A DNA stretch of 64,000 nt from a virus (IMGVR_UViG_3300025314_000012), one strand, 5' to 3'; positions 5,389-60,622 are shown, numbered from the stretch's first letter. The notes: generated by a model from the sequence alone, not told the origin. Program-made: numbers and translations.

Positions 5389-8004
5389 TTATGGACACGT
5401 TATTGTATTAAAATCGTTATAATCTAATCCATTGCCGGAATTATATAGTGCTGATATTTCACCCACACACAACGCTCTTGACCATGTGGTGAATTGTTCT
5501 ATGTACCCACTATAATATTCACTTGTTGTATTAGGAATAGCACCAAATCCTGCATACCCATTATTTATAACAAATCTTCCTAAATTAGTTGAAGTAATAG
5601 ACGTGTCAAGTGTTCCGTTAAGATATAATTTAATATCGTATCCGTCTCTTACTATTGCAACATGATACCATGTTCCGCCAGACACAGAAGTTGTACTTAA
5701 ACAGGTGTCTGCATTTAGCTTCGTATCTGTCATATACAATCCTATTTTGTTGCCAACAAGTTTGACCAATATTTGTGCGCCAGATGTAGCCCTTACACCA
5801 CCGAGCGTTTTAGTTCCAGTTGTATTATTTGCGTTAAACCAAGTTGCAACAGTATATTGTCCGTTGCTATTAAGCATTGATCTTTGAGAACTATTATATA
5901 TTCTCGCAGGTGGAAAATATGCTGCTTGTTTTATAACTCCTGTTCCATAAGATACAATACCACCTGTACTCCAACTACCGCCATATATATTTCGTGAATC
6001 ATTCTTGTTGCCATTAAACTCATAACACGCCAATAGATTTCTAAGCAACGTTGGACTGTCTGGTACAGCAGGGGTTGTAACTGTTCCGCCGCTTACTTCA
6101 TATACAACAGTACCAGCGGCATCTAAACAACGATTTTCGTCTCTAAGGTCATATATCCGAAAATTATCAACCCTGCTTTCATAATCCCCCGTTCCCGTAA
6201 ATAAAATTCTTTGATTATGTAGATATAAATTACCTAACGGAAATGTTGTTCCAGATAGACAATATCCCTTGTCGGTAAGTGTCCCACAAATACTATCTGC
6301 GTTAACTGTATGAAGTTCATTTCTCGTAAATCCTGTTTGGTCTTTTTCCGAAACAGCAGAATAAGCTAAATATTGTGCGCCAATAGCACTTAAATTCTTA
6401 CACCCTGTCGTTACACTATAATCTGCTTCTGAATATCTTGACAGTATGCTACTTCTTACTGTTTCCGCTGTTTCATAGGTATCATTACATTCACTGTCCG
6501 TTAATCCGTTGGTAATAGTAGCTAACGTGAGTGTTATAACATACCCTGCATCGTTGTAATCAATATTGCCAGATGGGTGATAAGATATGGATTTAGTTGT
6601 CCAGTTATCTCCACAATTAACACCTATTCTTATGTTTCCGAAAATATATTTATAATGATTTATAGTGGTGTTATCGGAATCATAGTTGGTTATGTTTGCC
6701 CCACCCAATGCAGATACAAATTCATTTTTATACAACAAATAATCTGCCTCGTGAGTAAAACTAAAAGTTACAACATTAGACACTTTAGCTAAAGTCAATG
6801 TACCTGTTAAATTAACACAGGTACTTATGGGCTGTTTGCTATACGGTAGCGTAGCGTCTGTGTTTTCCAAGAAATCAAGTGTCATAGACGCAGACCTAAA
6901 ATCAAGCCCTGTATATGAGTTTTGATTTGAGGTTGTGTTTATGTTTTCTAAATATGTATGAAAATTATCGGTAAGAACACATTCTCCAACATTTCTTGTC
7001 CTCAAAACATATACACAATTCACTTCATCGTATAGTAATTGGGTTTCGTATGGGTCTATGTCAAATACAATAGGGTCACAAGTGGTACAATCAAATGTGT
7101 CAAGACATTTTGTTTTAAGCAACCAGTTTGTATTAGTATTTGTTGGTTGGTTATATGAAGGTGATATTTCTATTAAAAGATAGTTTCCTGTCGTGTAAGG
7201 AAAAGAAGATACATCTATAACATAGTTGAATCCAGCATATTGGTCTATTGCAACTGGTGATACTGAATAATTTGTGGAAGTATTGTCTTGCCCTACCACA
7301 AAATCACAAAGCTGAACAGGACTTTCTTCATCAGATATATCAACATAACTTATCTTTATTCTGTCAGACACAGTATAACCAGTGTATTCAAAGGCGAAAT
7401 AATTTGTTGTACTGCCAATATAATAATTAAAACTTCTCGATGCAAGTGATGGGTTTGGATTTGTACCATTATAGTTTACTTGATAACTGTAATCACCCGA
7501 AATATTACTTAACGAACAGTCCAATTGCAATACAGTTATTTCAGGAAGTACAGTTAAACCTATTAACTCACACCACGGTGCGCCCTCTGATGGATTGTTG
7601 TAAATCGTTGTATCGTTTATAATTATATATTTTATTTTTGGTTGCCACGTTCCTTCCGCTACTACCAGCTGGTTATCTCCTGTTAGTGGGTGTACAAAGG
7701 CTATATTAGGGTCTGTATTACCTGCATTTCCAGTAATAAATTCTGGTGTTAAACCACCGTTATAATACCACTCAATAGCATATCCTGTTATTGCACAACT
7801 CGTAGAAGTTAGACTTCCAACAGATATTCTCGCTATTTGGTTGTTTGTATAAGTGTCAAAAGCAAGGTCGTCACACCCACACAAGACTTCTGTTGTATCT
7901 GAAGGTATAGTATCTCCCATCCAAGTATAAGTACACCAAAAGTTCTGTGCATTTATGGTGAATACTGCAAACAGTAAGACTATGGATGATATTACTCTAT
8001 TCAT
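5389..8004 (-). CDS. Cys-rich exported protein with C-terminal LamG-like domain
   Basis: Signal peptide (FTINA|Q); LLACYEFNGN...WYHVAIVRDG...LYLNG...WSRALCVGEISALYNSG. Confidence 0.75.
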   Translation of the reverse strand: MNRVISSIVLLFAVFTINAQNFWCTYTWMGDTIPSDTTEVLCGCDDLAFDTYTNNQIARISVGSLTSTSCAITGYAIEWYYNGGLTPEFITGNAGNTDPNIAFVHPLTGDNQLVVAEGTWQPKIKYIIINDTTIYNNPSEGAPWCELIGLTVLPEITVLQLDCSLSNISGDYSYQVNYNGTNPNPSLASRSFNYYIGSTTNYFAFEYTGYTVSDRIKISYVDISDEESPVQLCDFVVGQDNTSTNYSVSPVAIDQYAGFNYVIDVSSFPYTTGNYLLIEISPSYNQPTNTNTNWLLKTKCLDTFDCTTCDPIVFDIDPYETQLLYDEVNCVYVLRTRNVGECVLTDNFHTYLENINTTSNQNSYTGLDFRSASMTLDFLENTDATLPYSKQPISTCVNLTGTLTLAKVSNVVTFSFTHEADYLLYKNEFVSALGGANITNYDSDNTTINHYKYIFGNIRIGVNCGDNWTTKSISYHPSGNIDYNDAGYVITLTLATITNGLTDSECNDTYETAETVRSSILSRYSEADYSVTTGCKNLSAIGAQYLAYSAVSEKDQTGFTRNELHTVNADSICGTLTDKGYCLSGTTFPLGNLYLHNQRILFTGTGDYESRVDNFRIYDLRDENRCLDAAGTVVYEVSGGTVTTPAVPDSPTLLRNLLACYEFNGNKNDSRNIYGGSWSTGGIVSYGTGVIKQAAYFPPARIYNSSQRSMLNSNGQYTVATWFNANNTTGTKTLGGVRATSGAQILVKLVGNKIGLYMTDTKLNADTCLSTTSVSGGTWYHVAIVRDGYDIKLYLNGTLDTSITSTNLGRFVINNGYAGFGAIPNTTSEYYSGYIEQFTTWSRALCVGEISALYNSGNGLDYNDFNTITCP

Positions 8005-9886
8005 AATCTTTTGTTCCGTTAATTATTATATAAGTACCATCATACCAGTAAGAGTACACGTCGATAGCACCCGCTGTTGCCGTTGTAGTAATAACCCCAC
8101 CTGTGGCAAACACAAATGGACTTGTTTTAACCGTACCGCCAGTGAATTGCAGGGTATATCCACTTGCATCACACAATACTGTTATATTACCCGTAACACC
8201 TAAAAATAGGTTATCTAAATGTATTGTGGTGTTTCCAGATATGTCAAGAAATCCGTTTAACCCATTATCCGTGTTTAGAGTATCTGTTGTTCCCGATAGT
8301 GTTTGTACGATTGCATTATATTCGGCATATATTGTGTCGTTGCTTATAGTGGTTTTCACACCGCGCACACCAACCACCTTTGCTGCTTCAATTGCTATTT
8401 GTGTTAAATCATATTGAGTAGCGAGTACTGTTGTATCTGCCTTAAATTTCACACCACCGTACCCTATTCCTTCAATGTTAATCGTGGTGTCGCTGACAAA
8501 ATTAAACGCACCAACGTTTTCTTCTATAAGTTCGTATTGTACATATAAATCAGGATTTTCATAATCTACCAAGTCGCCTGTTGTTACAAAGGTGTCGCAC
8601 TCTACCATAAAAGTATCTACGCCAAAGGCTAATTCTGTATTATCTTCGTAGGCACACAACGCACCTGTGGTAAGTGCAGCCCACGTAGCATTTGCTATTG
8701 GTGTGTATGTTCCTCCGTCATATCCTGCTATGTAATCACCGTTGCGGTATTTTGTTTCCATGAGGTTGTCTGCAAGCCAAGTTTGTGTTCCTATTGTTAC
8801 TACACGGTATTCGTGTCCGTCATTGCTAGTGTATGAGGTGGGTGTGCCTGCTCCGGTGTAAAGTAGGCGAATAGAACCTGCGTCTTTTAAAAATTGACTA
8901 CTTATATAAGCAGCTCCTTCTTGTTCGTTTAATGACAATGTATAATAACTGTCTGCATCAACTAATTCGTTTATTATTGCATTATATTGTTCTTTAATAA
9001 ATCCAAATGTACCTTCTACCCCATATTCCACATCCCCATACCTGTAACCTGACCCTCTTGCATTAAATCCAACATAATTAATTGCCCCTTCATTTGGTGT
9101 ATTCCAATATTCAAAACCTTCTTCTTTAAGTATTCCACCTGCTAATAGCCACGCTCCACTTCCTGAATCATAAGTATCAATATGGTTTAAAAGTGTTGCG
9201 TATTGTGCCGAATCTGGCACAACCCAATCATCTGAACTTGTAATTTTCCTTACATCTGCTGCTGCATACCAATTATATAGCAATCCAAATCCATTGTTTG
9301 TGTCATATATAGTATCACACACCGTATAATAGCTTGTAGTGTCTTTCTGTGGTATTAAATCACCCACACACGCAAGTATGTCCTCACAGGTTAATATCAG
9401 CGTACTTAAATCTACAACGCTTGGTGGCACACCATCATCAGATAGCGATATTTCAAGTGAATCTCCTACCAATCTAAAAGTATCAACTAACTGTGGTGTT
9501 TCGTCTGGCAGTGTCAATGTCTTAAAAGGCTCTCCATCGTCTGTTATTGATATTCGTATTTTATTGCTGTCATACAAATCAAAAGTATCTATCTTTTGAA
9601 ACTCTATACCACGCAAATCCATTATATACCAAGTTTCTTTTACGTCATTGGAGAATCTCATGTACCTGTCTCCTTCCACGTATTCTTTCTTCCACACGTA
9701 AGGTGTAGTGGTTGAAAACTCGTGATATGTTATATCCAACACGGGAATCAGTACCCCTTGATACTTAAACAATGAATCTGTTATCAGCGTATCTCTTGCA
9801 CGCTGCACAACGTCATAGTCCCCCACATTCTGTGCAAACGTTATTGTCGCAAGAAGTGTAAATAATATTGTCAGTAATTTCTTCAT
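7997..9886 (-). CDS. exported protein with FISUMP (Fib_succ_major) domain
   Basis: Signal peptide (TITFA|Q); GLLYNWYAA, AGGILKE..W.TPN.GA.N..GF.A.GSGYR and VTIGTQTWLADNL..TKYRNGD motifs. Confidence 0.8.
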   Translation of the reverse strand: MKKLLTILFTLLATITFAQNVGDYDVVQRARDTLITDSLFKYQGVLIPVLDITYHEFSTTTPYVWKKEYVEGDRYMRFSNDVKETWYIMDLRGIEFQKIDTFDLYDSNKIRISITDDGEPFKTLTLPDETPQLVDTFRLVGDSLEISLSDDGVPPSVVDLSTLILTCEDILACVGDLIPQKDTTSYYTVCDTIYDTNNGFGLLYNWYAAADVRKITSSDDWVVPDSAQYATLLNHIDTYDSGSGAWLLAGGILKEEGFEYWNTPNEGAINYVGFNARGSGYRYGDVEYGVEGTFGFIKEQYNAIINELVDADSYYTLSLNEQEGAAYISSQFLKDAGSIRLLYTGAGTPTSYTSNDGHEYRVVTIGTQTWLADNLMETKYRNGDYIAGYDGGTYTPIANATWAALTTGALCAYEDNTELAFGVDTFMVECDTFVTTGDLVDYENPDLYVQYELIEENVGAFNFVSDTTINIEGIGYGGVKFKADTTVLATQYDLTQIAIEAAKVVGVRGVKTTISNDTIYAEYNAIVQTLSGTTDTLNTDNGLNGFLDISGNTTIHLDNLFLGVTGNITVLCDASGYTLQFTGGTVKTSPFVFATGGVITTTATAGAIDVYSYWYDGTYIIINGTKDYE

Positions 9887-38250: not shown

Positions 38251-41200
38251 TTATGCAAAATTCCAATAGTCCTCTGCGTTATACGAATCAGAATTATCGC
38301 TTAGCATTTCTTCTGCGTATGGAGTTTCTGCACCCATTAGACACATACCATGTGCTGTTAACCTATCATAGTGTCTCATCATCTCCATTCCAGTAATCTC
38401 CTTACATTCTTGTAGATATTCAGCAAATGCTTCCACGTGACACCTGTTTTCAAGGTAGTCCCTTGTTCTACTGAATAGCAATTGCTTAGACCTTTCCAAC
38501 GAATCACACCCCGCTTTTTCCTTGTATCTTCCTGTCTTTAAGTCTATGTCGTAAAGAAGATATGCTCCATATTCTTTTTCGATAAAATATCTAAGCGTTT
38601 CATCTAAGTTTGTTTCAGGGTACACCATCGCCCCAAAATATATCGCTGCCTTTAACGTATCTTCGTTAAACTCATTTGAATTTGCGGGTCTATGTCTGTA
38701 AGACAACACAAACTTATATGTGTCCCAATCTTTTATTTCCTTACCGCCATCAACTGATGGGTCGTATTTAAGTAGTATAGCTATACCACCGTCAGACAAC
38801 CTACTTTTCTTGCCAAGTGAAGCACCTGTCCGTGAATCCTGTTTTGTTCCGAACTTAAACGGGTCGCACCCTAACACGTACTTGTTTGGATACTGTGGTC
38901 GCCACATTGGAATATGTTTTCCCTTTATGGAACTATATGTGCTTATCTGTATTCTTTTATTAGATACGGCAGGACTTGGAAATTCACTTATCCTAAACCT
39001 ACCATTTTCTTCATCGTGTACAAATTCAACATCGCTTCCAAACCCGTTTACCCACACTAAATCACCACGCACTGTTTTGTCTTCTCTCCTTAATTCAGCA
39101 AGCCTTTCATCTATCCTTTCAAGTGGAAATCCTATTGAACCTGCTTCTCCTAACCAACAGTCTGCATACTTAATAGGGAACAATTTCTTTTCTTCCCTAT
39201 ATGCTCTCATGGATTCTGAATCACCACGCTGAAGTAACACGTCTCTTTTGCCCTGTAAAAATTCAAGTGCTGTCTGTGTGAATCCTTCTTCTCTCTGATA
39301 GTCCAATATCGTATCTTTAACCGAAAATCCATAGCTGTCAATAAACCCGTCAAGACCCTCTGTTGCGGGTATAAACAACCTAAATAGTCCAGAAAATGTT
39401 TGTCCGCTTGACTTTATCCTTTGATAAAAGTTTGACGTATTTGCCAAGAACCTGTAATCAAAACTACCATCCGTTAATTCATCACTCGTTGATGGATAGT
39501 CTAAGTATCCAAATATGATTCTTCCATTTCCTTGTGCGCAACAGTTCTTATTTACGTCATGGCGTTTTAATACACTGACATTGGAAGTATTGTGCGCTAC
39601 CGTATTGTCTTCCAATAAAAATCTTCTGTTTCCGTCTATAACAAATCCGTAATAATCACCAACGCCAATACTCTCTACCGAAAATCCTGTATGTAACGGA
39701 TTTCTCGTATTTGGATGATGCGGCTTTCTTTCGTATCTTTTCCTGTTTACCTTACACGGTATTCTCCACAAATCAAGTCCATATATAGAAACACGAAATA
39801 CCTCACATTCATAAACACTTCCGTCTTCTCTTTTCATTCTTGCAATCTTTGGATACATAGAACAACTAAATCCCAAATCAAGTGCAAGTCTTCTTATATT
39901 TTCGGCAAGAACTTTTCTTTTTTGTGTTACTTCATATCCTGTTCTATTGCCTGTATATGCGTATCCATCCGAATCAATTAATCCCGCTAATAAACTAAGT
40001 CTGTTTTCTTCTGAATCAAAAAGGTAATCTTTTGGAATATGTTTGTTACCTATAACACCTATCTTTCTTAATTCTTCTATTAAGCTAAAATTCTTTTGTT
40101 TAATTATCTCGTAACCACGATAATTGTCTTTTGTTTTTATAGTCCAATTTATAGAACTAATAGTAGTATCAAAATATGACGCTATTTCTCCTACTGAATA
40201 AAACACAAGTTCTTCTACACCATTATTAAAAAAATATGTATATTCTGATTTTCTGGATAGATGATATGTTATTTCATCCCTAACCATTTGAGTATCGTTT
40301 AATGATGAAAACTCTTTTAAATAATCAATTATTTCAATGTCTATATTCGTAATATTAACACCACCATGATACCCATCACCAAGCCACAATCCCAAAAAAT
40401 AAGGTTCTACTACGTGCTTGTTCTCTGTGTATTTGACTGGTTTCTTATACATAACAGATGCAAGTTTGTGTCTTGGTTTCATTTTAAGATATTCCTTTAT
40501 GGTTTTCTTAAAATAATCACCACCTCTAACTCCGGGTATGGCATTACCATCACTTGACTTCAAACATAATATATGCTCGCTGTTACAAGTCCACTCTTTC
40601 CCCTGATTTGGAATTATCTTATACATTTCGTCAACACCACGTGCTAACCTTAAAACATTTCTCGGCAAAGAATCATCCCCCATCAAAACATCCCCAACTC
40701 GTATATCTTCAACATTCTTTACAGAACCATCAAACATTCTTATTTCCGTTCCTTTTCCAAAACATTTTCCGGCTTCGTCAACAAGTAGGTATGTCATCTT
40801 TTTACCATCGAAATACTTCTCTGATGCCGTTGTTGCATACACAAATTTTGTTTGTAAGGAATCAACTGCGTATTCGTTTTTGCCTACATCGAATTTTAGT
40901 GAATCAGAAGTTCTACCCGAAGACGTAAACGGTTTTATCCATATAGGAAACTTATCAAACGATGGAAGAAGTTTCATCTTAAAATGTTCTTCTGCGTTAT
41001 CGTTACTATAACTTTGAATACCACCACCGTCTGTTCCTATCGTCCTTGTAATTACCTCAACTCCATTGCTAATTGACTTATTTGTATTTCCTGAACGCCT
41101 GTTCTTTGCCTGATGCTTTCCATAGCATATTCTTCTTGGCACGTGTTTGTTGCCAATCCTATCCACTAAGTTAATCATAGAATAAGTTCCGTCTTCATTA

Positions 41201-41763
41201 GGTACGGCAAATCCGTCTTTGTCTATCTTTTCAAATGTTTCGTTTGACGTATAGCAATAATCAACAAACAGATACTCTTTTCTATCTCTATCTCTATATC
41301 CGGGTCTGTCTTCACCCTCGTTGGTATCCATTCTCCACACGTTCAAATAAAAGAAGTGCTTTCCTGTAATGTATGTTGGTTTACCCATATTGTAAAACCA
41401 ATATCCATTCATTCTATGCCACCAAAATTTTCTTATGAAATTTATTTCGTTTTTAAAATCCTTATTCCTTTCGGTAAGCATTTCCCAAAACTTCTTCTGA
41501 ATTTTTAGTAGTGTTACAACATTGTTCTTATTGGTAGCCAATTCCTCTTTAACGGATTGTACCGCTTCTTCTTCCAAGTCAATTAATCTTCTTGGCACTT
41601 CCAATCTCTTAAATCGTTGGTCTTTGTAATAATCACCGTACCCATCAATGTATTTCAACGGTGGTGGTTCGGGTAGTTTCAACACGATTGGTCGCAAGTC
41701 GGGGTCATTATCATTTAACACCACGTACTTGTCAGCGGGTATATAGTCCTTTAGATTACTCAT
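38251..41763 (-). CDS. terL: terminase large subunit containing an intein
   Basis: KNRRSG Walker A region, LLVDEAGK Walker B, GCDPF RNase H-like nuclease, YDRLTAHG final acidic motif. Confidence 0.9.
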   Translation of the reverse strand: MSNLKDYIPADKYVVLNDNDPDLRPIVLKLPEPPPLKYIDGYGDYYKDQRFKRLEVPRRLIDLEEEAVQSVKEELATNKNNVVTLLKIQKKFWEMLTERNKDFKNEINFIRKFWWHRMNGYWFYNMGKPTYITGKHFFYLNVWRMDTNEGEDRPGYRDRDRKEYLFVDYCYTSNETFEKIDKDGFAVPNEDGTYSMINLVDRIGNKHVPRRICYGKHQAKNRRSGNTNKSISNGVEVITRTIGTDGGGIQSYSNDNAEEHFKMKLLPSFDKFPIWIKPFTSSGRTSDSLKFDVGKNEYAVDSLQTKFVYATTASEKYFDGKKMTYLLVDEAGKCFGKGTEIRMFDGSVKNVEDIRVGDVLMGDDSLPRNVLRLARGVDEMYKIIPNQGKEWTCNSEHILCLKSSDGNAIPGVRGGDYFKKTIKEYLKMKPRHKLASVMYKKPVKYTENKHVVEPYFLGLWLGDGYHGGVNITNIDIEIIDYLKEFSSLNDTQMVRDEITYHLSRKSEYTYFFNNGVEELVFYSVGEIASYFDTTISSINWTIKTKDNYRGYEIIKQKNFSLIEELRKIGVIGNKHIPKDYLFDSEENRLSLLAGLIDSDGYAYTGNRTGYEVTQKRKVLAENIRRLALDLGFSCSMYPKIARMKREDGSVYECEVFRVSIYGLDLWRIPCKVNRKRYERKPHHPNTRNPLHTGFSVESIGVGDYYGFVIDGNRRFLLEDNTVAHNTSNVSVLKRHDVNKNCCAQGNGRIIFGYLDYPSTSDELTDGSFDYRFLANTSNFYQRIKSSGQTFSGLFRLFIPATEGLDGFIDSYGFSVKDTILDYQREEGFTQTALEFLQGKRDVLLQRGDSESMRAYREEKKLFPIKYADCWLGEAGSIGFPLERIDERLAELRREDKTVRGDLVWVNGFGSDVEFVHDEENGRFRISEFPSPAVSNKRIQISTYSSIKGKHIPMWRPQYPNKYVLGCDPFKFGTKQDSRTGASLGKKSRLSDGGIAILLKYDPSVDGGKEIKDWDTYKFVLSYRHRPANSNEFNEDTLKAAIYFGAMVYPETNLDETLRYFIEKEYGAYLLYDIDLKTGRYKEKAGCDSLERSKQLLFSRTRDYLENRCHVEAFAEYLQECKEITGMEMMRHYDRLTAHGMCLMGAETPYAEEMLSDNSDSYNAEDYWNFA
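39589..40764 (-). mobile_element. intein with LAGLIDADG homing endonuclease (residues 334-725, 392 aa)
   Basis: Starts CFGKGT.IRMFDGS.K.VEDIRVGD; YFLGLWLGDG and LAGLIDSDG blocks; ends FLLEDNTVAHN followed by Thr. Confidence 0.9.
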
Positions 41764-47445: not shown

Positions 47446-47517
47446 CGGTTAAAATTATAACGGTTTGTGTATGTTTTGAAAGCCACAGCACGAACACTCG
47501 AATTTAATTTTAAAAAT

Positions 47518-47904
47518 ATGAAACGAATAAATAAAAACATTGGTGCTAAAGTACAGGTTAGAGAAATAACAGTTGAAATTAACCCACAAGTTAAGTGGAA
47601 AAAACTTAAGAAGGTTACTGGTGTTATTGTTGAAAACGATGGGTATGAGCATTATTATCATACTTGCAGTGGTGGATATACTTATGTAACCAAGCACTTA
47701 ATTAAAAACGATTGCTATAAAACATACGCTATAAAACTTGATAATAATGTAAAGGACATTGAAGGTAATAACATTATTGTAGTACGAGAGTTTGATACTA
47801 AGTTTTTGGAACGAATTGAAGTACCTAAGAAAAAAGTTACAGAAAAAGATTACTTTAATGCTAAAAATGTTATTGAACGATATGAGTCTGAGAATGGCTT
47901 ATAA
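47518..47904 (+). CDS. hypothetical protein
   Basis: Probable ATG 47518 within track ORF 47467..47904; its TAA is part of a TAAC site. Confidence 0.6.
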   Translation: MKRINKNIGAKVQVREITVEINPQVKWKKLKKVTGVIVENDGYEHYYHTCSGGYTYVTKHLIKNDCYKTYAIKLDNNVKDIEGNNIIVVREFDTKFLERIEVPKKKVTEKDYFNAKNVIERYESENGL

Positions 47905-47983
47905 CGGATAGTGGTATGTTCTGAACCGATAAATCACCACGAAATTTAAGACGAGAACGAATGTTAAATTAAAATTTTATACA

Positions 47984-48349
47984 ATGAATATAGTTGAAAA
48001 TAAACATGTAAAATTTGATATTGATACAGTTGAAGGCGCTGAGAAATATCTTGAAAGCGAAGGCGTAAATGTTGCCGAATACTTACAAAAAGGAATTGAA
48101 GAATTAAAAAATAATACAATGAACGAAAGAGAAGTACACTTAAAATTAAGTGAAGTAAAAATTGACAACGACAACCTTGATTACATAAAAATGACAGGGG
48201 AGATATGTGGCAAATTAAGAGACGACATAGTAAAATTATTTGCTATGACTGATGTTACCGGGGAGTGCGAACACCCGTATCGCTCATTAAGCGAAGATAA
48301 AGATGGTTTGTATTGTATGGATTGTAAAAAAAGCCTTTCGCCAATTTGA
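47984..48349 (+). CDS. hypothetical chimeric protein crossing an attC-like core site
   Basis: GTT at 48254 read as V91; C-terminal CxH...CxxC module; second internal start context at ~48119. Confidence 0.65.
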   Translation: MNIVENKHVKFDIDTVEGAEKYLESEGVNVAEYLQKGIEELKNNTMNEREVHLKLSEVKIDNDNLDYIKMTGEICGKLRDDIVKLFAMTDVTGECEHPYRSLSEDKDGLYCMDCKKSLSPI

Positions 48350-48355
48350 GCATTA

Positions 48356-48497
48356 CCGGTAACGAAAAAGTATAAAAGAAGTAACTATGCAAGAAGAAAT
48401 AATTAACGAAATACGCAAAGTTAAAACAGGAGAATTAACACCAGAAGAATGTGCTGACAAGCTATTTCTTTTATATGGTATTATGTTTCAGGTTTGC
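48356..48497 (+). repeat. attC-like element B
   Basis: CCGGTAAC, then stem GTATAAAAGAAGTAAC / GCTATTTCTTTTATAT, then (A)TTATGTTTCAGG. Confidence 0.75.
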
Positions 48498-48581
48498 GTT
48501 ATTCATAATCCACAACCAGTTATGGGGATGGATAATGATATAATAGAGTATAGATGTTCAGAATGTGGTAAGCAAACTTGA
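48387..48581 (+). CDS. hypothetical protein starting inside the element B loop
   Basis: Crosses the core site in frame; C-terminal CxxH...CxxC. Confidence 0.65.
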   Translation: MQEEIINEIRKVKTGELTPEECADKLFLLYGIMFQVCVIHNPQPVMGMDNDIIEYRCSECGKQT

Positions 48582-48707
48582 ACATAACAAGTTTGTAAAC
48601 GAATAAATTATTGCAATAAAATCAAACTTTAATATTGGATACTGAGTTAAACGTGTGAAAAAAATAACAAAAATAAAAATCATTACCTTTATACATATCT
48701 TTGTGAC

Positions 48708-48968
48708 ATGAAAGAGGACGAAAAATACAACACCGACATTGAAGTTTACAACTTAGTAAACGACATAAAGAACATAGATGATGAATCGTGTTTCTACTTT
48801 AGGATGAAAGGTAACAGCGTGAGTATTGGGTACACAGGACTTGACCACACGCTAATCACAGGCTTTATAACGTGTATGGAACAGTATAAAGAGTTGTATG
48901 ACATTATCAATTCATCCGTGTTGATTTACGAAGAAGAAAACATTACAAGTGACATACGCGCAAATTAA
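48708..48968 (+). CDS. hypothetical protein
   Basis: Directly after the -7 box at 48696-48703. Confidence 0.65.
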   Translation: MKEDEKYNTDIEVYNLVNDIKNIDDESCFYFRMKGNSVSIGYTGLDHTLITGFITCMEQYKELYDIINSSVLIYEEENITSDIRAN

Positions 48969-49278
48969 TCAGAAAAATATCCTGCTTCAAATGGAAGTGG
49001 ATATGATTGCCAACAAGTACGTGTTACTTCAACAGCACTACACGCTGATGTCTGCCACACAAACTTTTTGCGACTTCGACGTATATAATTCTTTTGGTTA
49101 TCTTGGGTGGTATGAGGACGTGATGAAGTTCATTTGTAAAAACCACAAAGAGATAAAAAGGAAGTTTACGATGGATGAGTTCATGGAATTTGCGTGGCAG
49201 TTCCGTGTGAAAAAACTATCGAAGTTCCCAATGGAAACGATGGCTGACTTTAAGAAAATAAAGATAAGAAATGCTTAG
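48949..49278 (+). CDS. hypothetical protein
   Basis: 109-aa ORF in the early operon. Confidence 0.55.
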   Translation: MTYAQINQKNILLQMEVDMIANKYVLLQQHYTLMSATQTFCDFDVYNSFGYLGWYEDVMKFICKNHKEIKRKFTMDEFMEFAWQFRVKKLSKFPMETMADFKKIKIRNA

Positions 49279-49355
49279 CTTTATTGAAACAAACTATCAC
49301 TAATTTTGCTCAATATCAACGTTTGTGATATTATGCAAACATAACGATATTAAAA

Positions 49356-49448
49356 ATGATAAACTTTTTCAATGTTGACAATTTGGGGTTTATGAAAAGT
49401 AAGCCAGATAAGTATTATGATTTGGCGATTGTTGTATCAAAACATTAA
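49356..49448 (+). pseudogene. truncated 5' fragment of a DNA methyltransferase
   Basis: MINFFNVDNLGFMKSKPDKYYDLAIV aligns 13/26 with the N-terminus of 50050..50703 and breaks just before DPPY. Confidence 0.75.
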
Positions 49449-49480
49449 TGTATATTTGTAATAAATTAAAACATTAATAA

Positions 49481-50068
49481 ATGATACGAGATTCAAAACA
49501 ATTGCAAATCGGAAAAGCTGGAGAATATTTGGTTTGTGCTGATTTAATTTTAAAAGGATTTATAGCATTTCCAAGTGAACAAGGACTACCTTATGATGTA
49601 CTTTTAGACACAGGAGAAAAACTATTGAGGGTTCAAGTAAAAACGACAGAAAGACCACGTTTAGTTAAACAAAGAAACACGCCAATACCTGCATATATTT
49701 TCAGTATTAAAAGGGCTGGAGCAAATGGCAAAACACGCTACAATGAAAACGAAATAGATTTATTCGCTTTGGTTTGTTTAGATACCATAAGTATTGGTTA
49801 TTTATTAAATAAAGAAATGCCAACAACAATAAATATAAGAGTTGATAGCGAGCGTGGTAAATATTACGATGAAAAAGGATTATTGGATTACAATCAGGCT
49901 ATAAAGCTACATGAAAACATAAAAAATAAATCAGAAATAGGGAGAATGTTAAATATACAACAGGCTGTTGTAAGTAAATATTTACAACCAAATTACATAC
50001 CTTTTAAAACAAATGCAAAGTATTTTTCAGAATTTAAAAAAGATAAATCATGGTTCCTGACTATATAA
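49481..50068 (+). CDS. PD-(D/E)XK homing-type endonuclease with C-terminal HTH-like segment
   Basis: GKAGEYLV..DL..G......PYD.LLD....L.RVQVKT pattern; own -7 box at 49451-49458. Confidence 0.75.
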   Translation: MIRDSKQLQIGKAGEYLVCADLILKGFIAFPSEQGLPYDVLLDTGEKLLRVQVKTTERPRLVKQRNTPIPAYIFSIKRAGANGKTRYNENEIDLFALVCLDTISIGYLLNKEMPTTINIRVDSERGKYYDEKGLLDYNQAIKLHENIKNKSEIGRMLNIQQAVVSKYLQPNYIPFKTNAKYFSEFKKDKSWFLTI

Positions 50069-50703
50069 GTAAATCGGAAAATAATACAATAAATTTTTAT
50101 AACTGTGACTGTATTGAATTTATGCGGTCTATTCCTGATAATTACTTTTCTATTGCCATTACAGACCCGCCCTATGGATTAGGTAACAAATTGACAAATG
50201 GTGGCACTTGGTCTGTAAAATGGCAGGATAAGGGTGCTGATTGGGATAAAACGCCAACAAAAGAATATTGGGAACAATTATTTAGGGTATCTAATAATTG
50301 GATTGTTTGGGGTGGAAATTACTTTATAGAGCATTTACCAAATTGTAGAAACTTTATTGCTTGGCATAAACCATATATGGATGGTATGCACTCCATGAGT
50401 AATGTAGAATTGGCTTTAACTTCTTTTGATAAAAACGCAAAAAAAGTATCATTCAATAAAGACAAAGGAACAGAATATAGGATTCATGTAACCCAAAAAC
50501 CAATCTCCCTATACCGTTGGCTACTCCAAAACTACGCAAAGATAGGAGATAAGATATTTGATTCACATGGAGGAAGCATGAGTTCGGCAATAGCTTGCGA
50601 CATGGAAGGATTCGACCTTGACATCTGTGAAATCGATAAAGATTACTTCGATGCTGGTGTAAACAGATTTAACGAATACAAAAGGCAGTTAACTCTATTT
50701 TAG
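50050..50703 (+). CDS. N6/N4 DNA methyltransferase (beta-class order)
   Basis: DPPY precedes H.TQKP..LY.WLL...IFDSHGGSMS. Confidence 0.9.
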   Translation: MVPDYISKSENNTINFYNCDCIEFMRSIPDNYFSIAITDPPYGLGNKLTNGGTWSVKWQDKGADWDKTPTKEYWEQLFRVSNNWIVWGGNYFIEHLPNCRNFIAWHKPYMDGMHSMSNVELALTSFDKNAKKVSFNKDKGTEYRIHVTQKPISLYRWLLQNYAKIGDKIFDSHGGSMSSAIACDMEGFDLDICEIDKDYFDAGVNRFNEYKRQLTLF

Positions 50704-51089
50704 TTCTTCTGAAATAAACTTCTCCTATCTATTTTAATATTTCCTAAGTGAGCATACATAGCACTCTGCATATTCTTTGCAAACTTTCCTACTTCTTTAC
50801 TTCTATCACGTGAATACTTCACCATTTCATCTTCTATTGCACAGAAGAACTTTAAAAATTCACCAAATTCAACAGCACCGTTATCCACGTCATATTCGAG
50901 TAAGAACTTTCTAAATTTCCTTCTACGGTTTTCATTCACCCACGCCCACAGTTTCCTGCAACCTTTCCAACCGTGTTCAATACCGAGTTCCTGCCGTTGG
51001 TCGCCATAGAGTTTAATTAAGCGTTCCGCCTCTTCGGGTGTGGTTTCTGTAACGTACTTTGCTAAAAGTTTTGTGTCGCTAATATTCAT
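50700..51089 (-). CDS. hypothetical protein, inverted in the early arm
   Basis: Own minus-strand -7 box TATATTTG at 51105-51112. Confidence 0.65.
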   Translation of the reverse strand: MNISDTKLLAKYVTETTPEEAERLIKLYGDQRQELGIEHGWKGCRKLWAWVNENRRRKFRKFLLEYDVDNGAVEFGEFLKFFCAIEDEMVKYSRDRSKEVGKFAKNMQSAMYAHLGNIKIDRRSLFQKN

Positions 51090-51204
51090 AATCTTTTTTT
51101 ACTACAAATATAGTAATAAATATTGCTCGATGTGTTGTAAAACATAAAAAATTATGCTCATTTATACGAATTATTCATTATCTTTGCAGAAAAAAAAGTT
51201 ATGG

Positions 51205-51334
51205 TAACGTATGGTGCTATACGATGTGGCGGACTTTCAGCAGAAAGCCCAATACGAAGCACCACAGTTTGAATTAGTAAAAATATTTAACCGAAGCACG
51301 TCACCCGCCATATTGTATATCACTTGTTAGCGGA
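51205..51334 (+). repeat. attC-like element D
   Basis: TAAC, 19-bp stem (51214-51232 / 51305-51323), GTTAGCGGA. Confidence 0.8.
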
Positions 51335-51362
51335 TGCCCTTCTTCATAAATCATAAATAAAA

Positions 51363-51542
51363 ATGAAAATAGCAGTAATAGTAACAGTTTGCCATCAAAT
51401 AGGAATAGAAACTTGGAAAGACTTTCACACTACAAAAGTGTTTGAAGAAAATTCAACCATTAAAGAGATTGATGATTGGATAAAATCAATTAATAAAAAT
51501 GCAAGTTTCTCAGATGCTAAAATCTCGTTGTGTGTCGATTAG
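51363..51542 (+). CDS. 59-aa cassette gene (not in ORF track)
   Basis: MKIAVIVTVCHQIGIETWKDFH...; flanked by GTTAGCGGA and TCCGCTAAC. Confidence 0.6.
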   Translation: MKIAVIVTVCHQIGIETWKDFHTTKVFEENSTIKEIDDWIKSINKNASFSDAKISLCVD

Positions 51543-51599
51543 GGTTTCCGCTAACAATCTGCTAAACGAATATTTTGTTATACAAAACTTTGTAAATGT

Positions 51600-52391
51600 T
51601 TGATTATGAAACTATCAGTAATAACAACTTCTTACAACAAGTGTGAAACACTAAAACACGCAATCGACAGCGTGATTAACAACTTAATCGGAATAGACTA
51701 TGAGTTAATAATCGTTGACGATGGAAGCACAGATGGCAGTGTGGATATAATCAATTCATACACCGATAGTAAAATTAAGAAGATATTCACACCGCACTAC
51801 GGAATGTTGAACGCCTACAAAGTAGCACTTGATAATGTAAGTGGTGATTACATTACTTTTTGTGATTGTGATGACTACAAGAATCGTGGACTAAAGTTTC
51901 AGTTTCTAATGATGGCAGCGTTTAACCATGACCTTACGTGTTCACGAGCATACATTGATAACGGTAAAATAATTAAGTCAGACACACCGATTGAAGTGTT
52001 GGAGGCAGGATTGGCTTACGACAATGTACTGAAAGGTAAGGCGTGTGTTCACGCACAAACGTTAATGATAAAAAAAGACTACTTTGACAAGTACATAGAC
52101 TTCGATAAGTTTTTAGACTTCAACGTGTGGGATTTACCGATACTACTTGAAGCTATACGCCACACCAAAATGGTATATTTCGATTTCTACACAGGAACGT
52201 ACCGTGTGGGTACAGAAACAGCTACCAAGACAGAAAGTCGCTTAAAAAGGCTAAAACTCGTGTTAGGATACATGAAAATAAAGCTGTGGTATATTAGAAG
52301 GTATGGTTGTAAACCAACCACGTTTACCTACATGATTTATAAATTTACAAGGGATATGGTGAGTATAATATTTAAAAGGTGGAATAAATGA
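51600..52391 (+). CDS. family 2 glycosyltransferase
   Basis: LSVITTSYN...AIDSV...YELIIVDDGSTDGS...YITFCDCDD. Confidence 0.9.
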   Translation: MIMKLSVITTSYNKCETLKHAIDSVINNLIGIDYELIIVDDGSTDGSVDIINSYTDSKIKKIFTPHYGMLNAYKVALDNVSGDYITFCDCDDYKNRGLKFQFLMMAAFNHDLTCSRAYIDNGKIIKSDTPIEVLEAGLAYDNVLKGKACVHAQTLMIKKDYFDKYIDFDKFLDFNVWDLPILLEAIRHTKMVYFDFYTGTYRVGTETATKTESRLKRLKLVLGYMKIKLWYIRRYGCKPTTFTYMIYKFTRDMVSIIFKRWNK

Positions 52392-52609
52392 ACTATCTAA
52401 TTGAATACACGGCAAAGACCACACAAGGAGTTGTGATAAAGAGTGGCAAGATGCGTGTGAAAAACAAAATGAGTACACTCCACGCACAATTGTCATTTGA
52501 AGATTATCTGAAAAGCAAGATGCCAAATTTCGGTGTGTTGATAGTGCATGACTGCAAGGAGGAAATGGATAACGATTTCTTAAATATTTTTAAAGATATT
52601 TTTAAGTAA
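52388..52609 (+). CDS. hypothetical protein
   Basis: Coupled to the GT2 gene. Confidence 0.6.
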   Translation: MNYLIEYTAKTTQGVVIKSGKMRVKNKMSTLHAQLSFEDYLKSKMPNFGVLIVHDCKEEMDNDFLNIFKDIFK

Positions 52610-52686
52610 AAAAACTAAAGTACCGTAGGGAGGCTGTAAACGGGCGTGAGTGTACGATGGCTGATTGTAATAATTGTGGTGTTATA

Positions 52687-52818
52687 TAACGTTTTGGTGC
52701 TTGTTGTCAGTAGCGGATTTACAGCACAAATGTTTAATTGAAAATAAAAGTTGATATGAAAATAGAAATTAAAATTACCGATGATGCTGGCAATGTTCAG
52801 TTATACAATGTTAGCGGT
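52687..52818 (+). repeat. attC-like element E (degenerate arms)
   Basis: TAACGTT...AATGTTAGCGGT; TTGTCAGTA/TGCTGGCAA inner pairing. Confidence 0.6.
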
Positions 52819-52962
52819 TCGTTGCAACAAATAGTGTGGGACGGATTTCTAACAGCACAATACCAAGATGAACAATGGCATGACCAAGATACTTGTGATT
52901 TAATAGTAAAGAAATTAAAGGGAGAAAGTCCGCTTGAATATGCTGTCAGCAATGACCGATAA
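52738..52962 (+). CDS. hypothetical protein crossing the element E core
   Basis: GTT 52810 in frame (Val); stop is the TAA of the next TAAC; likely ATG 52756. Confidence 0.6.
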   Translation: MKIKVDMKIEIKITDDAGNVQLYNVSGSLQQIVWDGFLTAQYQDEQWHDQDTCDLIVKKLKGESPLEYAVSNDR

Positions 52963-53153
52963 CGGTTTAGCTATGTTTAGTTGCGAACAAATTAAAACGA
53001 AATATTATGAATGATTACGACTTATTGGAAAAAATGATTGAGGCATCATCAGCCTACGTTAAAGGTGAAATAAGCTCAAAAGAGTGCAGTGCAAAAATGG
53101 CAAGTTCATTAAATGCTCATAAAGAGCAATTAAATATAGCTTGTGTTAACCGC
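52955..53153 (+). repeat. attC-like element F
   Basis: ACCGATAAC, stem GCTATGTTTAGTTGC / GCAATTAAATATAGC, GTTAACCGC. Confidence 0.8.
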
Positions 53154-53300
53154 TGTGCTTCTGTTATCCCAACGACATGGTTAGACCCTTTATTGACAGG
53201 AAAAGATGCAGCATTAACTGGTGAGGCCGGTAAATGGGGATGCCCTGATATTGAAAACTTACTGAAAGCAATTAAAAACCGTATTGAGCATTGCGGTTAA
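53007..53300 (+). CDS. hypothetical protein starting in the element F loop
   Basis: GTT 53145 = V47; stop TAA inside GCGGTTAAC. Confidence 0.65.
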   Translation: MNDYDLLEKMIEASSAYVKGEISSKECSAKMASSLNAHKEQLNIACVNRCASVIPTTWLDPLLTGKDAALTGEAGKWGCPDIENLLKAIKNRIEHCG

Positions 53301-53433
53301 CGGTTTGCACATAGGCAATGTGGCGGACTTTGGAACGCTGAACTTTCTGCAACCACTAAACTTGATTTGAAAACGAAACTTAATATTAACCGAGAACCCG
53401 CCATATTGCCTATGTGCTGTTATAGGTAGGGCT
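53293..53433 (+). repeat. attC-like element G
   Basis: 20-bp stem GCACATAGGCAATGTGGCGG / CCGCCATATTGCCTATGTGC, GTTATAGGTAGGGCT; homologous to element D. Confidence 0.85.
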
Positions 53434-53453
53434 TCTCACAAACTTAAATAGAA

Positions 53454-53729
53454 ATGAAAAAAACAATTTGGAAATTTGAATTAGACGTTACGGATAAACA
53501 ATTTGTTCGTATGCCACAAGAAGCTGAATTATTATCAGTTCAAACACAAAATGAAACGCCTTGTTTATGGGCTTTAGTAAATCCCAATCAAGCAACAGAG
53601 GAAAGATGCTTTGAAGTATTTGGAACTGGGCATCCTGTTCATTGTGATATGGGTATTGATAGAAAATATATTGGAACGTTTCAGATGCAAAATGGCAGAT
53701 TAGTCTTTCACTTGTTTGAACGTCTTTAG
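53454..53729 (+). CDS. small conserved phage protein (DUF7352-like)
   Basis: MKKTIWKFEL...MP..AE.LSVQ.Q...PCLWA.V.P...R.F.VFGTG pattern recalled from phage hypothetical proteins. Confidence 0.5.
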   Translation: MKKTIWKFELDVTDKQFVRMPQEAELLSVQTQNETPCLWALVNPNQATEERCFEVFGTGHPVHCDMGIDRKYIGTFQMQNGRLVFHLFERL

Positions 53730-53803
53730 CCTTACCAATAACTATGTTATATGTGCAATAAAATGACGGCGATTTATATGTTAATTATTTCATTTACAAC
53801 CAC

Positions 53804-58068: not shown

Positions 58069-58926
58069 ATGACACAAGAATTATCTCGTATAAAATTAGT
58101 AAGACTTGAACAGAAACGATTAGAGTACGTTGGTAAAATATACGGAAGTTGTGAGATAACCGAAATACTTAGGATGCCAGAGTACTACTCTGTAATAATA
58201 AAGTGCCATGAATGCGGCGGTGTGTCAAGACTTGAACTTAATAAATTCCTATCTAATCCAATATGCCCAATAAGCCATAATACCTCAAACACACAAGTAT
58301 CAACTAAGAAAACAAAATTCGTTACGCCAAAAAGATTTAAAAACCTTTCAGGACAAAAAATAGGAAGATTTACCGTGTTAGAACATATAGGTTGGCATAA
58401 ACCACCAAAAGGAAGACCAGTAGCTAAATATAAATGCGTATGCAAATGCGGTGAGCCGTGTGAACTTACGGCATCAGTACTAAAAGCAGGAAGAAAACTA
58501 TGTGATAAGGAATTTCAACAGCACAAAATAGAACAAGGCAAAAGGTCTGCTAAAAAAAGAATAAAGGATAAAATAGAAAACGGTGAATATAAAGAACCAT
58601 CATATAGGGACAGAATAAGCAGAAAACTATCAAAGTTTAGTAGATTGGTATATGACAGGTTCAACGGTGTGTGCCAAAAATGCAAAAACACATTCCCTAA
58701 ACAGAATACAGCATCACACCACATAATACCAATAAACACAAAACCAGAATTAGCACTTACATTATCTAACGGAATACTACTGTGCAAAAACTGTCACGAT
58801 AACTTTCACATGATATACGGAAGGATAGACTTCGACCATCTCCAGATATTTAATTATATAAAATCAACAGAAGTAACTCAGTACGACAGATACAGTAATT
58901 CCTCTGAGAACGAACGATTAGGTTAG
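58069..58926 (+). CDS. HNH homing endonuclease with N-terminal Cys-containing DNA-binding repeats
   Basis: CQKC...SHHIIP...NGILLCKNCHDNFH; NLSGQKIGRFTV...YKCVCKCG. Confidence 0.85.
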   Translation: MTQELSRIKLVRLEQKRLEYVGKIYGSCEITEILRMPEYYSVIIKCHECGGVSRLELNKFLSNPICPISHNTSNTQVSTKKTKFVTPKRFKNLSGQKIGRFTVLEHIGWHKPPKGRPVAKYKCVCKCGEPCELTASVLKAGRKLCDKEFQQHKIEQGKRSAKKRIKDKIENGEYKEPSYRDRISRKLSKFSRLVYDRFNGVCQKCKNTFPKQNTASHHIIPINTKPELALTLSNGILLCKNCHDNFHMIYGRIDFDHLQIFNYIKSTEVTQYDRYSNSSENERLG

Positions 58927-59926: not shown

Positions 59927-60493
59927 TTAATTTACTACTTCAGCTATTTTGTAGAACGCACCATTTTTATATTGTATTTGTATAGTATTCCCTTGTTCGT
60001 CTTTATAGATATTTTTATCCACACGCGAATAATTAGTAATATCAATAATTGATTCCTTGTGTTCGGGTAGTTTTATTGGCTTGTGTTCTTTGTGTATTCC
60101 GTATTCTTTTAGTCTTTTAATTATAGCCTGTCTTGTTACGTCATATTTATCTGCTATTTCTGTAATGGTTTTATTATTCATGTACATATTAGTTATTTCG
60201 TCATAGTGTAAAGTAAGGGTTTTAATATATTCAATCACACGCGCCGGGTCTATGTAAAACCATTCACCGCGTTTATGATGAGGTTTAAAATGTTTGTGGC
60301 ATAGTTTTTCTATTTGTCTTGCATTCATTAATGGCATTGTTTGATGTTTAATAACTAATTCACACCCCGCACCCGTTTCTAATTCTATTAATCTTGTTTC
60401 GGGGTTCTGGCTTATTCCTATTTTGGTTATATCATACTCTTTGTTGTATATAACATAAACACACTGATTAACTGGTAATACTCTTTTATTCAT
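59927..60493 (-). CDS. GIY-YIG (T5orf172/MUG113-like) nuclease domain fused to an HTH
   Basis: VYVI...KIGISQNPETRL.EL.TG...IEKLCHKHF...RGEWF, then TITEIADKYDVTRQAI; start moved to MNKRV because a -7 box lies at 60518-60525. Confidence 0.75.
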   Translation of the reverse strand: MNKRVLPVNQCVYVIYNKEYDITKIGISQNPETRLIELETGAGCELVIKHQTMPLMNARQIEKLCHKHFKPHHKRGEWFYIDPARVIEYIKTLTLHYDEITNMYMNNKTITEIADKYDVTRQAIIKRLKEYGIHKEHKPIKLPEHKESIIDITNYSRVDKNIYKDEQGNTIQIQYKNGAFYKIAEVVN

Positions 60494-60622
60494 AATTATT
60501 ATATTAGTGTAACCATGCAAAGTTACATTATAATATTTTTTACAAAATAATTTTGTTTTGTTTGTTTATGTTGTTTATAGTATTTATATTTGTCTATTAT
60601 TAATCACAAAAATTAAAATATT

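Follow-up and report, generated by a model that had tools for sequence, protein, structure and literature searches.

The stretch between 51.2 and 53.8 kb of the Flavobacteriaceae-type phage DNA analyzed here (64,000 nucleotides in full, hereafter the window) is likely to be a short, partly eroded integron-type gene cassette array of a kind widespread in Flavobacteriaceae, and the phage probably trades the small early genes located there as cassettes. The repeats in question have a defined structure and covary, their host counterparts adjoin an integrase gene, and phages share a module with one breakpoint at a TAAC core.

Hairpin sites and gene brackets in the window

A covariance model (R1) located three hairpin sites, all on the + strand and spanning at most 2.2 kb, at 51204-51330, 52686-52804 and 53297-53423. 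The window also contains three full gene brackets (51326/51555, 53145/53301 and 53419/53742) of the form GTTA-N6-G-N4 ... N4-T-N6-TAAC, each with 15-nt boxes, the 10 paired positions out of 11 variable ones that we required of a bracket, and G:T at stem position 11. The original prediction had listed six complementary core/inverse-core pairs in three clusters. All six are present at their predicted positions and three belong to full family members, whereas the others (48254/48356, 48480/48572 and 52810/52955) pair over just 8-9 nt or have a broken core and lack the position-11 G:T, so that they are at best eroded boundaries. The clusters at 51.2-51.6 and 52.7-53.8 kb hold up, while that at 47.9-48.6 kb is reduced to eroded traces.

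At the array head, a promoter-like TAnnTTTG motif, TTATCTTTGCAG, was read directly from the sequence at 51175..51190 (+ strand); it resembles the Bacteroidota −7 consensus and is a putative promoter. Hairpin site 1 (51204..51330, + strand) is attC-like, 127 nt long (R1 94.2 bits, E 1.4e-18), laid out as GTAAC-G...stem...loop...stem-T-GTTAG; viral contig L014 has a site of 92% identity. The boxes of cassette 1 (51326..51555, + strand), GTTAGCGGATGCCCT at 51326-51340 and AGGGTTTCCGCTAAC at 51541-51555, pair at 10 of 11 positions with G:T at position 11, and its ORF of 59 aa (51363-51542, + strand) ends in a TAG stop immediately 5' of the 3' box. Hairpin site 2 (52686..52804, + strand), absent from the R1 training set, is eroded and scores 46.1 bits (E 6.6e-8); an ORF at 52756-52962 starts inside its loop. 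The partial bracket GTTAGCGGT / ACCGATAAC (52810..52963, + strand) pairs at 8 of 9 positions, has no position-11 G:T and falls short of the 10/11 threshold.

Further downstream, what may be the remnant of a hairpin whose loop has enlarged (TAAC-GGTTT-AGCTAT ... ATAGCT-TGT-GTTAAC) was recognized by eye at 52960..53149 (+ strand), where the R1 score is not significant (9.7 bits); the loop contains the start of an ORF at 53007-53300. Bracket 2 (53145..53301, + strand) consists of GTTAACCGCTGTGCT (53145-53159) and AGCATTGCGGTTAAC (53287-53301), paired at 10 of 11 positions; position 10 is T:T and position 11 G:T. Its boxes lie inside and at the end of the same ORF, with the ATG 138 nt upstream of the box. 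Hairpin site 3 (53297..53423, + strand) is of type E-A; its stem measures 20 bp and its loop 71 nt. It scores 99.9 bits with R1 and only 28 bits on the opposite (−) strand, has a DNA fold z of −2.9 and is 88.5% identical to Flavobacterium phage hattifnatt9-1. Cassette 3 (53419..53742, + strand) is a full bracket with boxes GTTATAGGTAGGGCT and AGCCTTACCAATAAC and a 91-aa DUF7352 ORF (53454-53729, + strand; Pfam E 1e-30), which also occurs in other hairpin frames in loci L144 and L150. Two cores abut in the sequence of the array tail (TAAC-TAT-GTTAT, 53739..53750, + strand) with no hairpin between them.

The sequence at 48254..48588 (+ strand) holds the eroded traces, GTTACCGG / AGCATTACCGGTAAC (48349-48363) and ATTATGTTTCAGG / GCAAACTTGAACATAAC, including a 3' box that resembles the canonical form (repeat family D3). 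R1 returned nothing significant in 47.9-48.6 kb (13-14 bits, E about 1), and folds at 48254..48588 were no better than shuffles, as was the case for most short intergenic stretches of the window. No tRNAs were found. Under a loose criterion, the number of complementary pairs in the window is only modestly above chance (15 versus 12.7 in shuffles). The strict criterion was put to a shuffle control in phage hattifnatt9-1, where it yields 13 pairs and shuffled sequence averages 0.86 per 39 kb. The decisive evidence for the repeats lies at the level of the family, where both brackets and hairpin covariation withstood shuffling, the control on which the original prediction had staked its complementary pairs.

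Covariation and architecture of the site family

Across phage loci, all 56 unique brackets carry G:T at stem position 11, with covariation at positions 5-9 and 12-15. Neither TAAC nor GTTA varies among the aligned phage sites (23 of 23) or the brackets (56 of 56), confirming the inverted AAC ... GTT core triplets that had been proposed. The complementarity of a cassette start to its own 3' end, also part of the proposal, extends over 15 covarying base pairs in three cases in the window and 56 unique ones overall. The boxes do not follow the R-box consensus RYYYAAC / GTTRRRY named alongside: T occupies position 5 in 34 of 56 and a purine does so in 19, and 22 of 56 have a pyrimidine at position 7.

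Stereotyped hairpins lie between the brackets of phage arrays. They are mostly 126-130 nt long, with a short class of 45-95 nt, and combine an asymmetric spacer (G-TTYY versus 0-1 nt), a mismatch and a bulge that each keep a constant place, loops of about 9-70 nt and G:U at two fixed places (22 of 23 and 20 of 23 sequences). Bulges are found in the arm on the AAC side, unlike in the classical attC bottom strand (PMC5027507); the type E-A stem is continuous. The hairpin covariation score reached 0.532, compared with 0.170 in shuffles (0 of 500 as high) and 0.08-0.12 in slid controls, with paired cells at 91.7% versus 70.4% in shuffles and 16 of 23 pairs changed on both sides. Rfam, which has no attC model, gave no family match at gathering or loose thresholds.

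Type E-A is represented by about 24 copies in viral contigs that share 85-95% identity across unrelated phages; every copy precedes one common leader and, in most cases, one common box, and the upstream genes differ. The possibility that its loop encodes a peptide was rejected for want of a start codon and of an open frame. Inspection by eye revealed no host-type promoter motif in the loops and no T-run after the stems. About 19 of 62 ORFs begin within a hairpin loop, and these traverse the core in all three frames; stop codons occur in or beside the 3' box. The sites span many unrelated phages of Flavobacteriaceae, where they order small early genes, and in every phage record searched in full they are co-oriented and confined to a single gene block.

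Related sites beside a recombinase in host chromosomes

The covariance model built from phage sites only matched 88 of 121 sampled Flavobacteriaceae genomes, with up to 22 scored hits per genome, many of them single on large contigs. These matches overturned a reading of the sites as restricted to phages and substantiated the expectation that Bacteroidota carry them next to a recombinase: in the three genomes inspected, arrays directly follow the gene for a Xer-like tyrosine recombinase of 374-402 aa. The 374-aa enzyme of Gelidibacter sediminis (locus L131, 5603-6727), the only one scanned as a whole protein, obtained 232 bits with NCBIfam NF040815 ('site-specific tyrosine recombinase/integron integrase'; cut-off 220), and six-frame translation yielded a 375-aa ORF with 232.8 bits in genome G105 and a 402-aa ORF with 227 bits in G103. 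The host recombinase stays under the IntI cut-off (TIGR02249, 191.8 versus 265), and its gene is co-directional with the cassettes. Host arrays also feature the position-11 G:T bracket, and their core copies read YAAC/GTTR. An exact-pattern scan of bacterial genomes for type E-A recovered only seven true copies, six on contigs of 571-5152 nt and one on a 43-kb contig, all judged phage-like from contig size and MAG bin labels.

As the original prediction had it, no integrase is in view in the phage: tyrosine recombinases (PF00589) were found neither among window ORFs of 180 aa or more nor in ten array-bearing phage records. Once attC-type status is granted to the sites, the phage array has the two or more clustered, co-oriented sites with no integrase nearby that define a CALIN, and lacks the adjacent IntI gene of a complete integron. 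The co-oriented sites, the host arrays beside a recombinase and the absence of one from the phages largely support the CALIN-like reading, in which recombination is an inference; its G|TT boundary did not stand, and neither the strand polarity nor the hairpin's link to the downstream gene fits it.

Polarity, boundaries and exchange between phages

The folding (model) strand is the coding strand in phages, with the hairpin upstream of its gene, whereas in hosts it is antisense to the cassette genes. Site polarity in phages is thus opposite to that in hosts, a difference that does not fit the integron cassette reading and bears on the making of cassettes and the choice of strand.

A 488-bp module is common to two otherwise unrelated contigs (L019 and L023), and one of its ends falls exactly at ATAAC. 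The left breakpoint lies inside the hairpin loop and therefore fits homologous recombination, so that the predicted inter-phage exchange with breakpoints at cores was recovered for one module end only. Linkage data fit a boundary at TAAC, on the 5' side of the hairpin, instead of the G|TT suggested earlier, and fit a hairpin that belongs with its downstream gene. The DUF7352 ORF occurs with different frames or none, with homology running from ATG to stop. In the phage's own population, examined through the contigs of 4 of the 16 metagenome runs holding at least half of the stretch, we encountered one clonal sequence, no recombination event and no joints at cores; a single contig joint from 48119 to 48973 was dismissed as unreliable, having only 20 nt on one side. 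A 520-nt indel between the near-identical contigs L014 and L016 was likewise discarded as a cassette event, being a plain gene insertion away from any core. The closest relatives by helicase (about 50% identity) carry no sites.

Proposed mechanism and alternative explanations

Read along the coding strand, a phage unit opens with a TAAC core, a G and an imperfect hairpin; the box GTTA-N6-G-N4 comes next, and a short leader separates it from the ORF, after which stands the box N4-T-N6-TAAC. The two boxes of one unit can pair into a 15-bp helix that includes the constant position-11 G:T. Integrons suggest by analogy that the site would fold up when its DNA is single-stranded, and that a tyrosine recombinase of the host would cleave within AAC on the hairpin's 5' side and swap strands with a second site. 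The excised circle would join both boxes around the hairpin into one long stem, which would explain why gene ends match each other and not their neighbours. Because no such recombinase was found in the phage, gain, loss and exchange of cassettes would depend on the integrase of the infected host; co-infecting phages could contribute through homologous recombination between their conserved hairpins. Active sites would offer a tangible account of how phage accessory genes, such as methyltransferases and likely anti-defence genes, turn over so rapidly, and would let genes pass directly between phage and host pools in a major clade of marine and soil bacteria, most of whose sampled genomes are marked by a phage-trained model that finds arrays beside a Xer-like integrase. 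Tentatively, we also entertain a broader scenario in which one large integron-like system, of which we found no description, is common to Flavobacteriaceae and their lytic-type phages, with a Xer-like integrase, sites of about 128 nt and 15-bp boxes with a fixed G:T. Phages might keep a separate cassette pool of mirror polarity, with the hairpin upstream on the coding strand and its loop often supplying the start codon, so that the element would be a DNA recombination site and an RNA leader at once.

Action of the elements in the transcript seems rather unlikely to us as the main explanation. Hairpins and 15-bp helices would then be mRNA structures that serve processing, stability or the display of start codons in an open loop, and, being conserved across phages, might double as homologous-recombination linkers like T4-type PeSL cassettes. 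The sense strand is the folding strand in every phage examined and folds more stably than its complement (mean −29.9 versus −26.7 kcal/mol, p = 2.6e-4), and the fixed G:U-compatible pairs of hairpins and brackets, the ORFs that start in loops, the stops around the 3' box and the L019/L023 breakpoint inside a loop agree with such a role. Bacteroidota do not rely on Shine-Dalgarno pairing. PeSL elements offer a precedent for regulatory cassettes with modular shuffling and mini-circles (PMC2839356). Host sites with the same G:T positions, however, are antisense to the cassette genes and so cannot fold in those mRNAs. Moreover, attC sites are known for G:T enrichment on the strand that recombines (PMC5027507), Rfam contains no match, and a plain RNA helix needs no invariant GTTA/TAAC core.

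The integron-type reading has to be weighed, too, against an improbable reading of the window instances as chance, or as two or three inherited dead sites without present function. The window counts no more than three sites and three brackets, one of its clusters is eroded, the population is clonal and the nearest helicase relatives lack sites; yet two of the sites score 94-100 bits and fold well, and the three brackets keep the exact family rule down to the position-11 G:T. We consider it more improbable still that the sites are selfish dispersed repeats (MITE- or REP-like) mobilized by an unknown transposase, forming arrays without cassette function. Their abundance in host genomes, frequently as single hits on large contigs, and the high identity of E-A copies across unrelated phages would suit such repeats, but insertion leaves gene-specific boxes that covary and pair across a gene unexplained. 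Nor would it account for co-oriented sites in a single gene block per phage record searched in full or for host sites that begin right after the integrase gene, and no transposase is linked to the sites.

Comparison with known systems

Integrons are known mainly from Proteobacteria. In Bacteroidetes proper, IntegronFinder 2.0 identified one complete integron only, in Salinibacter (PMC9024848). Clusters of attC sites have been reported in virulent phages by Qi et al. 2023, with IntI1 recombining one of two predicted attC sites of the virulent Polaribacter phage P12002L (PMC9892861). That phage carries TAAC-hairpin-GTTA elements, in which we detected no 15-bp brackets and no match to the long-site model. 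Sites of the attC type are cut in AAC on the folded strand, are enriched in G:T mispairs on the recombined strand and possess unpaired features and a variable terminal loop (PMC5027507, Nivina et al. 2016), all of which agrees with the cassette reading.

The elements described here resemble attC sites in part, as imperfect hairpins of about 45-130 nt with AAC...GTT cores (classical attC sites measure about 57-141 nt, with an unpaired central spacer and extrahelical bases), and in their asymmetric unpaired spacer, fixed bulges and mismatches, variable terminal loop and G:T bias to one strand. The complementary cassette ends and the host arrays beside a tyrosine recombinase recall integron cassettes, and the phage arrays without integrase recall CALINs. 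Differences from attC are the phage boxes of 15 nt with a fixed position-11 G:T instead of 7 nt, the minority of purines at position 5 where GTTRRRY requires one, the hairpin upstream of the gene on the sense strand and the bulges on the AAC-side arm; the host enzyme sets itself apart by being Xer-like, missing the IntI model cut-off and pointing the same way as the cassettes.

Vibrio cholerae repeats, found in sedentary chromosomal integrons, are likewise long and of near-fixed length (about 123-128 nt), with similar sites beside very different genes; they belong to another host clade and differ in sequence, whereas the present sites occur in many unrelated lytic-type phages. The pdif modules of Acinetobacter plasmids also bracket genes between inversely oriented sites tied to a Xer-type recombinase, on which they depend, but use fixed 28-bp double-stranded sites in place of hairpins with variable, covarying arms. 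PeSL elements of T4-type phages similarly place conserved stem-loop modules between small non-essential early genes, and recombination between them shuffles genes and can form mini-circles (Arbiol et al. 2010, PMC2839356). Unlike PeSL, which consist of a sigma-70-like promoter and a terminator stem-loop, the phage sites have gene-specific covarying boxes and a host counterpart beside an integrase.

Paired boxes and hairpins in the window

Small genes on the + strand fill the region of the putative arrays. The original prediction had described attC-like sites from six sequence pairs, all of which were present. Three proved to be full brackets, that is, genes bounded by mutually complementary 15-nt boxes (GTTA-N6-G-N4 and N4-T-N6-TAAC), located at 51326/51555, 53145/53301 and 53419/53742 (all +), each with 10 of 11 variable positions paired and a G:T at stem position 11; the other three were short or had a broken core. 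When intergenic stretches of the region were folded singly, strong hairpins formed only at 51.2 and 53.3 kb. Under a loose criterion, pairs in the window exceeded chance modestly (15 versus 12.7 in shuffles), and the case for the sites, therefore, rests on the wider family. R1, a covariance model built from an alignment of 23 long phage sites, scored 99.9, 94.2 and 46.1 bits at three + strand sites of the window and gave nothing significant at 47.9–48.6 kb, one of the three clusters initially proposed.

In that last stretch, ORF 47984–48349 looks like an in-frame fusion; a leader-like sequence and ATG recur at 48101–48121 (repeat families D14 and D18). Positions 48099–48246 share 83% identity with the uncultured phage LR756500 (462 kb), in which the counterpart is a separate small gene in a hairpin array. 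Elsewhere in the window, an intein with Hint and LAGLIDADG homing endonuclease domains resides in a 1,170-aa protein (38251–41763, − strand), with HNH endonuclease (58069–58926) and T5orf172 (59927–60520) genes nearby.

A hairpin and bracket family across phages

Flavobacterium phage hattifnatt9-1 carries a counterpart of the 53.3-kb hairpin (88.5% identity), likewise intergenic but followed by an unrelated gene. An exact-pattern scan of viral contigs detected ~24 copies of this hairpin type, termed E-A (window site 53297–53423). Each copy has the layout TAACG-hairpin-GTTATAGGTAGGGCT-leader-ATG, and the subsequent ORFs differ, with the box complement carried at the ORF end in every case. Hairpins between brackets are stereotyped, running from NTAAC-G-TTYY through a 4–5-bp helix, a mismatch, a 6-bp helix, a bulge and an 8–10-bp helix to a loop of 9–70 nt and a return arm ending in T-GTTAN. 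The long class measures 126–130 nt, a length kept nearly constant despite loop sequence differences (for example, L004, L012, L020, L021, L022 and L026). Across the 23 aligned long sites, 91.7% of cells paired, versus 70.4% in shuffles and 38–50% with the partner slid; both sides had changed in 16 of 23 stem pairs, and the covariation score of 0.532 (versus 0.170) was reached by none of 500 shuffles. R1 sites in other phages were clustered and co-oriented. Loops of long phage sites often contain two CAC(T)AAA-like motifs ~40 nt apart, to which E-A adds a TTAATATTAAC motif.

The strict-criterion shuffle control for brackets, performed on hattifnatt9-1 rather than the window, gave 13 matches, where shuffles averaged 0.86 per 39 kb; one early operon of this phage is tiled by nine to ten brackets in succession. 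Its hairpin sites were confined to the leftward early operon (6473–9352), and none occurred in the rightward operon (gp020–gp033), the genes of which are just as small. Over all phage loci, the 56 unique brackets (span 115–953 nt, median 286) share an invariant GTTA:TAAC, covarying positions 5–9 and 12–15 and, without exception, a G:T at stem position 11 with the G in the 5′ box.

The proposed mobile unit and its boundary

Downstream of E-A copies, the leader is constant and the box usually so, while upstream genes and boxes all differ. In addition, two otherwise unrelated contigs (L019 and L023) have a 488-bp module in common (96% identity), in which identity is 98–100% for the ORF and the hairpin's 3′ half, the loop differs by ~29% in its 5′ half and homology stops on the right exactly at ATAAC. 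Because of this linkage and module end, the predicted phage unit is hairpin, box, ORF and box, delimited by the TAAC core at the hairpin's 5′ side and not, as first suggested, by G|TT.

The DUF7352 gene of the window (53454–53729) recurs in contig L144 (~88% nucleotide identity, judged by eye from the alignment) with a different hairpin type and co-varied boxes, in L150 within a five-site array and in four further contigs with no site detectable by R1; homology among copies is bounded by ATG and stop. Two 99.7% identical viral contigs (L014 and L016) differ by a 520-nt single-gene insertion (L014 8566–9090), the edges of which are overlapping stop and start codons, not hairpin sites.

Host arrays and the candidate enzyme

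Among 121 Flavobacteriaceae genomes sampled evenly, 88 had matches to the phage-trained model (E ≤ 1e-5). The expectation of such sites beside a recombinase in Bacteroidota was borne out in the three genomes inspected, where an array follows the recombinase gene. In Gelidibacter sediminis, a gene for a 374-aa tyrosine recombinase precedes four sites reaching the contig end, and twelve more fill four small contigs. Its product exceeds the threshold of NF040815, 'site-specific tyrosine recombinase/integron integrase' (232 bits, cut-off 220), and falls under that of the IntI model TIGR02249 (191.8 versus 265). Six-frame NF040815 matches of 232.8 and 227 bits (same cut-off) were obtained for a 375-aa ORF followed by four sites (G105) and a 402-aa ORF followed by six (G103). 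The bracket rule, including the position-11 G:T, also holds in host arrays. Adjacent units on G103 contig 19 (L143 1575–2415) are near-duplicates lacking ORFs of at least 50 aa on the cassette-gene strand, a tandem cassette duplication.

As anticipated, no integrase was identified in the phages: PF00589 was absent from ten array-bearing records (including three estimated as 97–99% complete, the complete hattifnatt9-1 genome and one 462-kb phage) and from window ORFs of at least 180 aa. Contigs from four metagenome runs contained no recombination joints at cores over the region, the population being clonal. Contigs of run X16 had loose ends at 48097 and 48992, not at TAAC/GTTA cores, which suggests that this ~900-bp stretch lies between other flanks in another genome of the sample.

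Interpretation and relation to known systems

We favor, with somewhat better than even confidence, a reading in which the phage sites are folded-DNA, integron-type sites that would be worked by a host enzyme. Polarity bears on this choice. In every phage, the model matches the sense strand, with the hairpin upstream of its own gene and ORF starts within the loop in ~19 of 62 cases, in any of three frames. This bias and the conservation of G:U-compatible pairs would also suit elements acting in RNA, an explanation we consider rather improbable given that host sites are antisense to the cassette genes in all three genomes and, in the three integrase-linked arrays, to the recombinase gene. In integrons, the cut lies in AAC, within the 5′ arm of the folded strand; were the phage sites cut likewise, each phage unit would have to start at its hairpin, in agreement with the observed linkage of hairpin to downstream gene. 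Exchange by homologous recombination at conserved hairpins probably plays a part, and the mid-loop breakpoint of the shared module fits this; such exchange resembles that at PeSLs, the stem-loop regulatory cassettes of T4-type phages (PMC2839356).

In polarity, the host sites match the bottom strand of classical attC, which is enriched in G:T mispairs (PMC5027507). A single complete integron is listed for Bacteroidetes proper by IntegronFinder 2.0 (PMC9024848). We found no paper on Flavobacteriaceae arrays, 15-bp boxes or the polarity difference, although literature coverage was incomplete and novelty is unproven. Qi et al. 2023 (PMC9892861) described clusters of attC sites in virulent phages, among them Polaribacter phage P12002L, one of whose two tested sites was recombined by IntI1; related but shorter elements are present in that phage.
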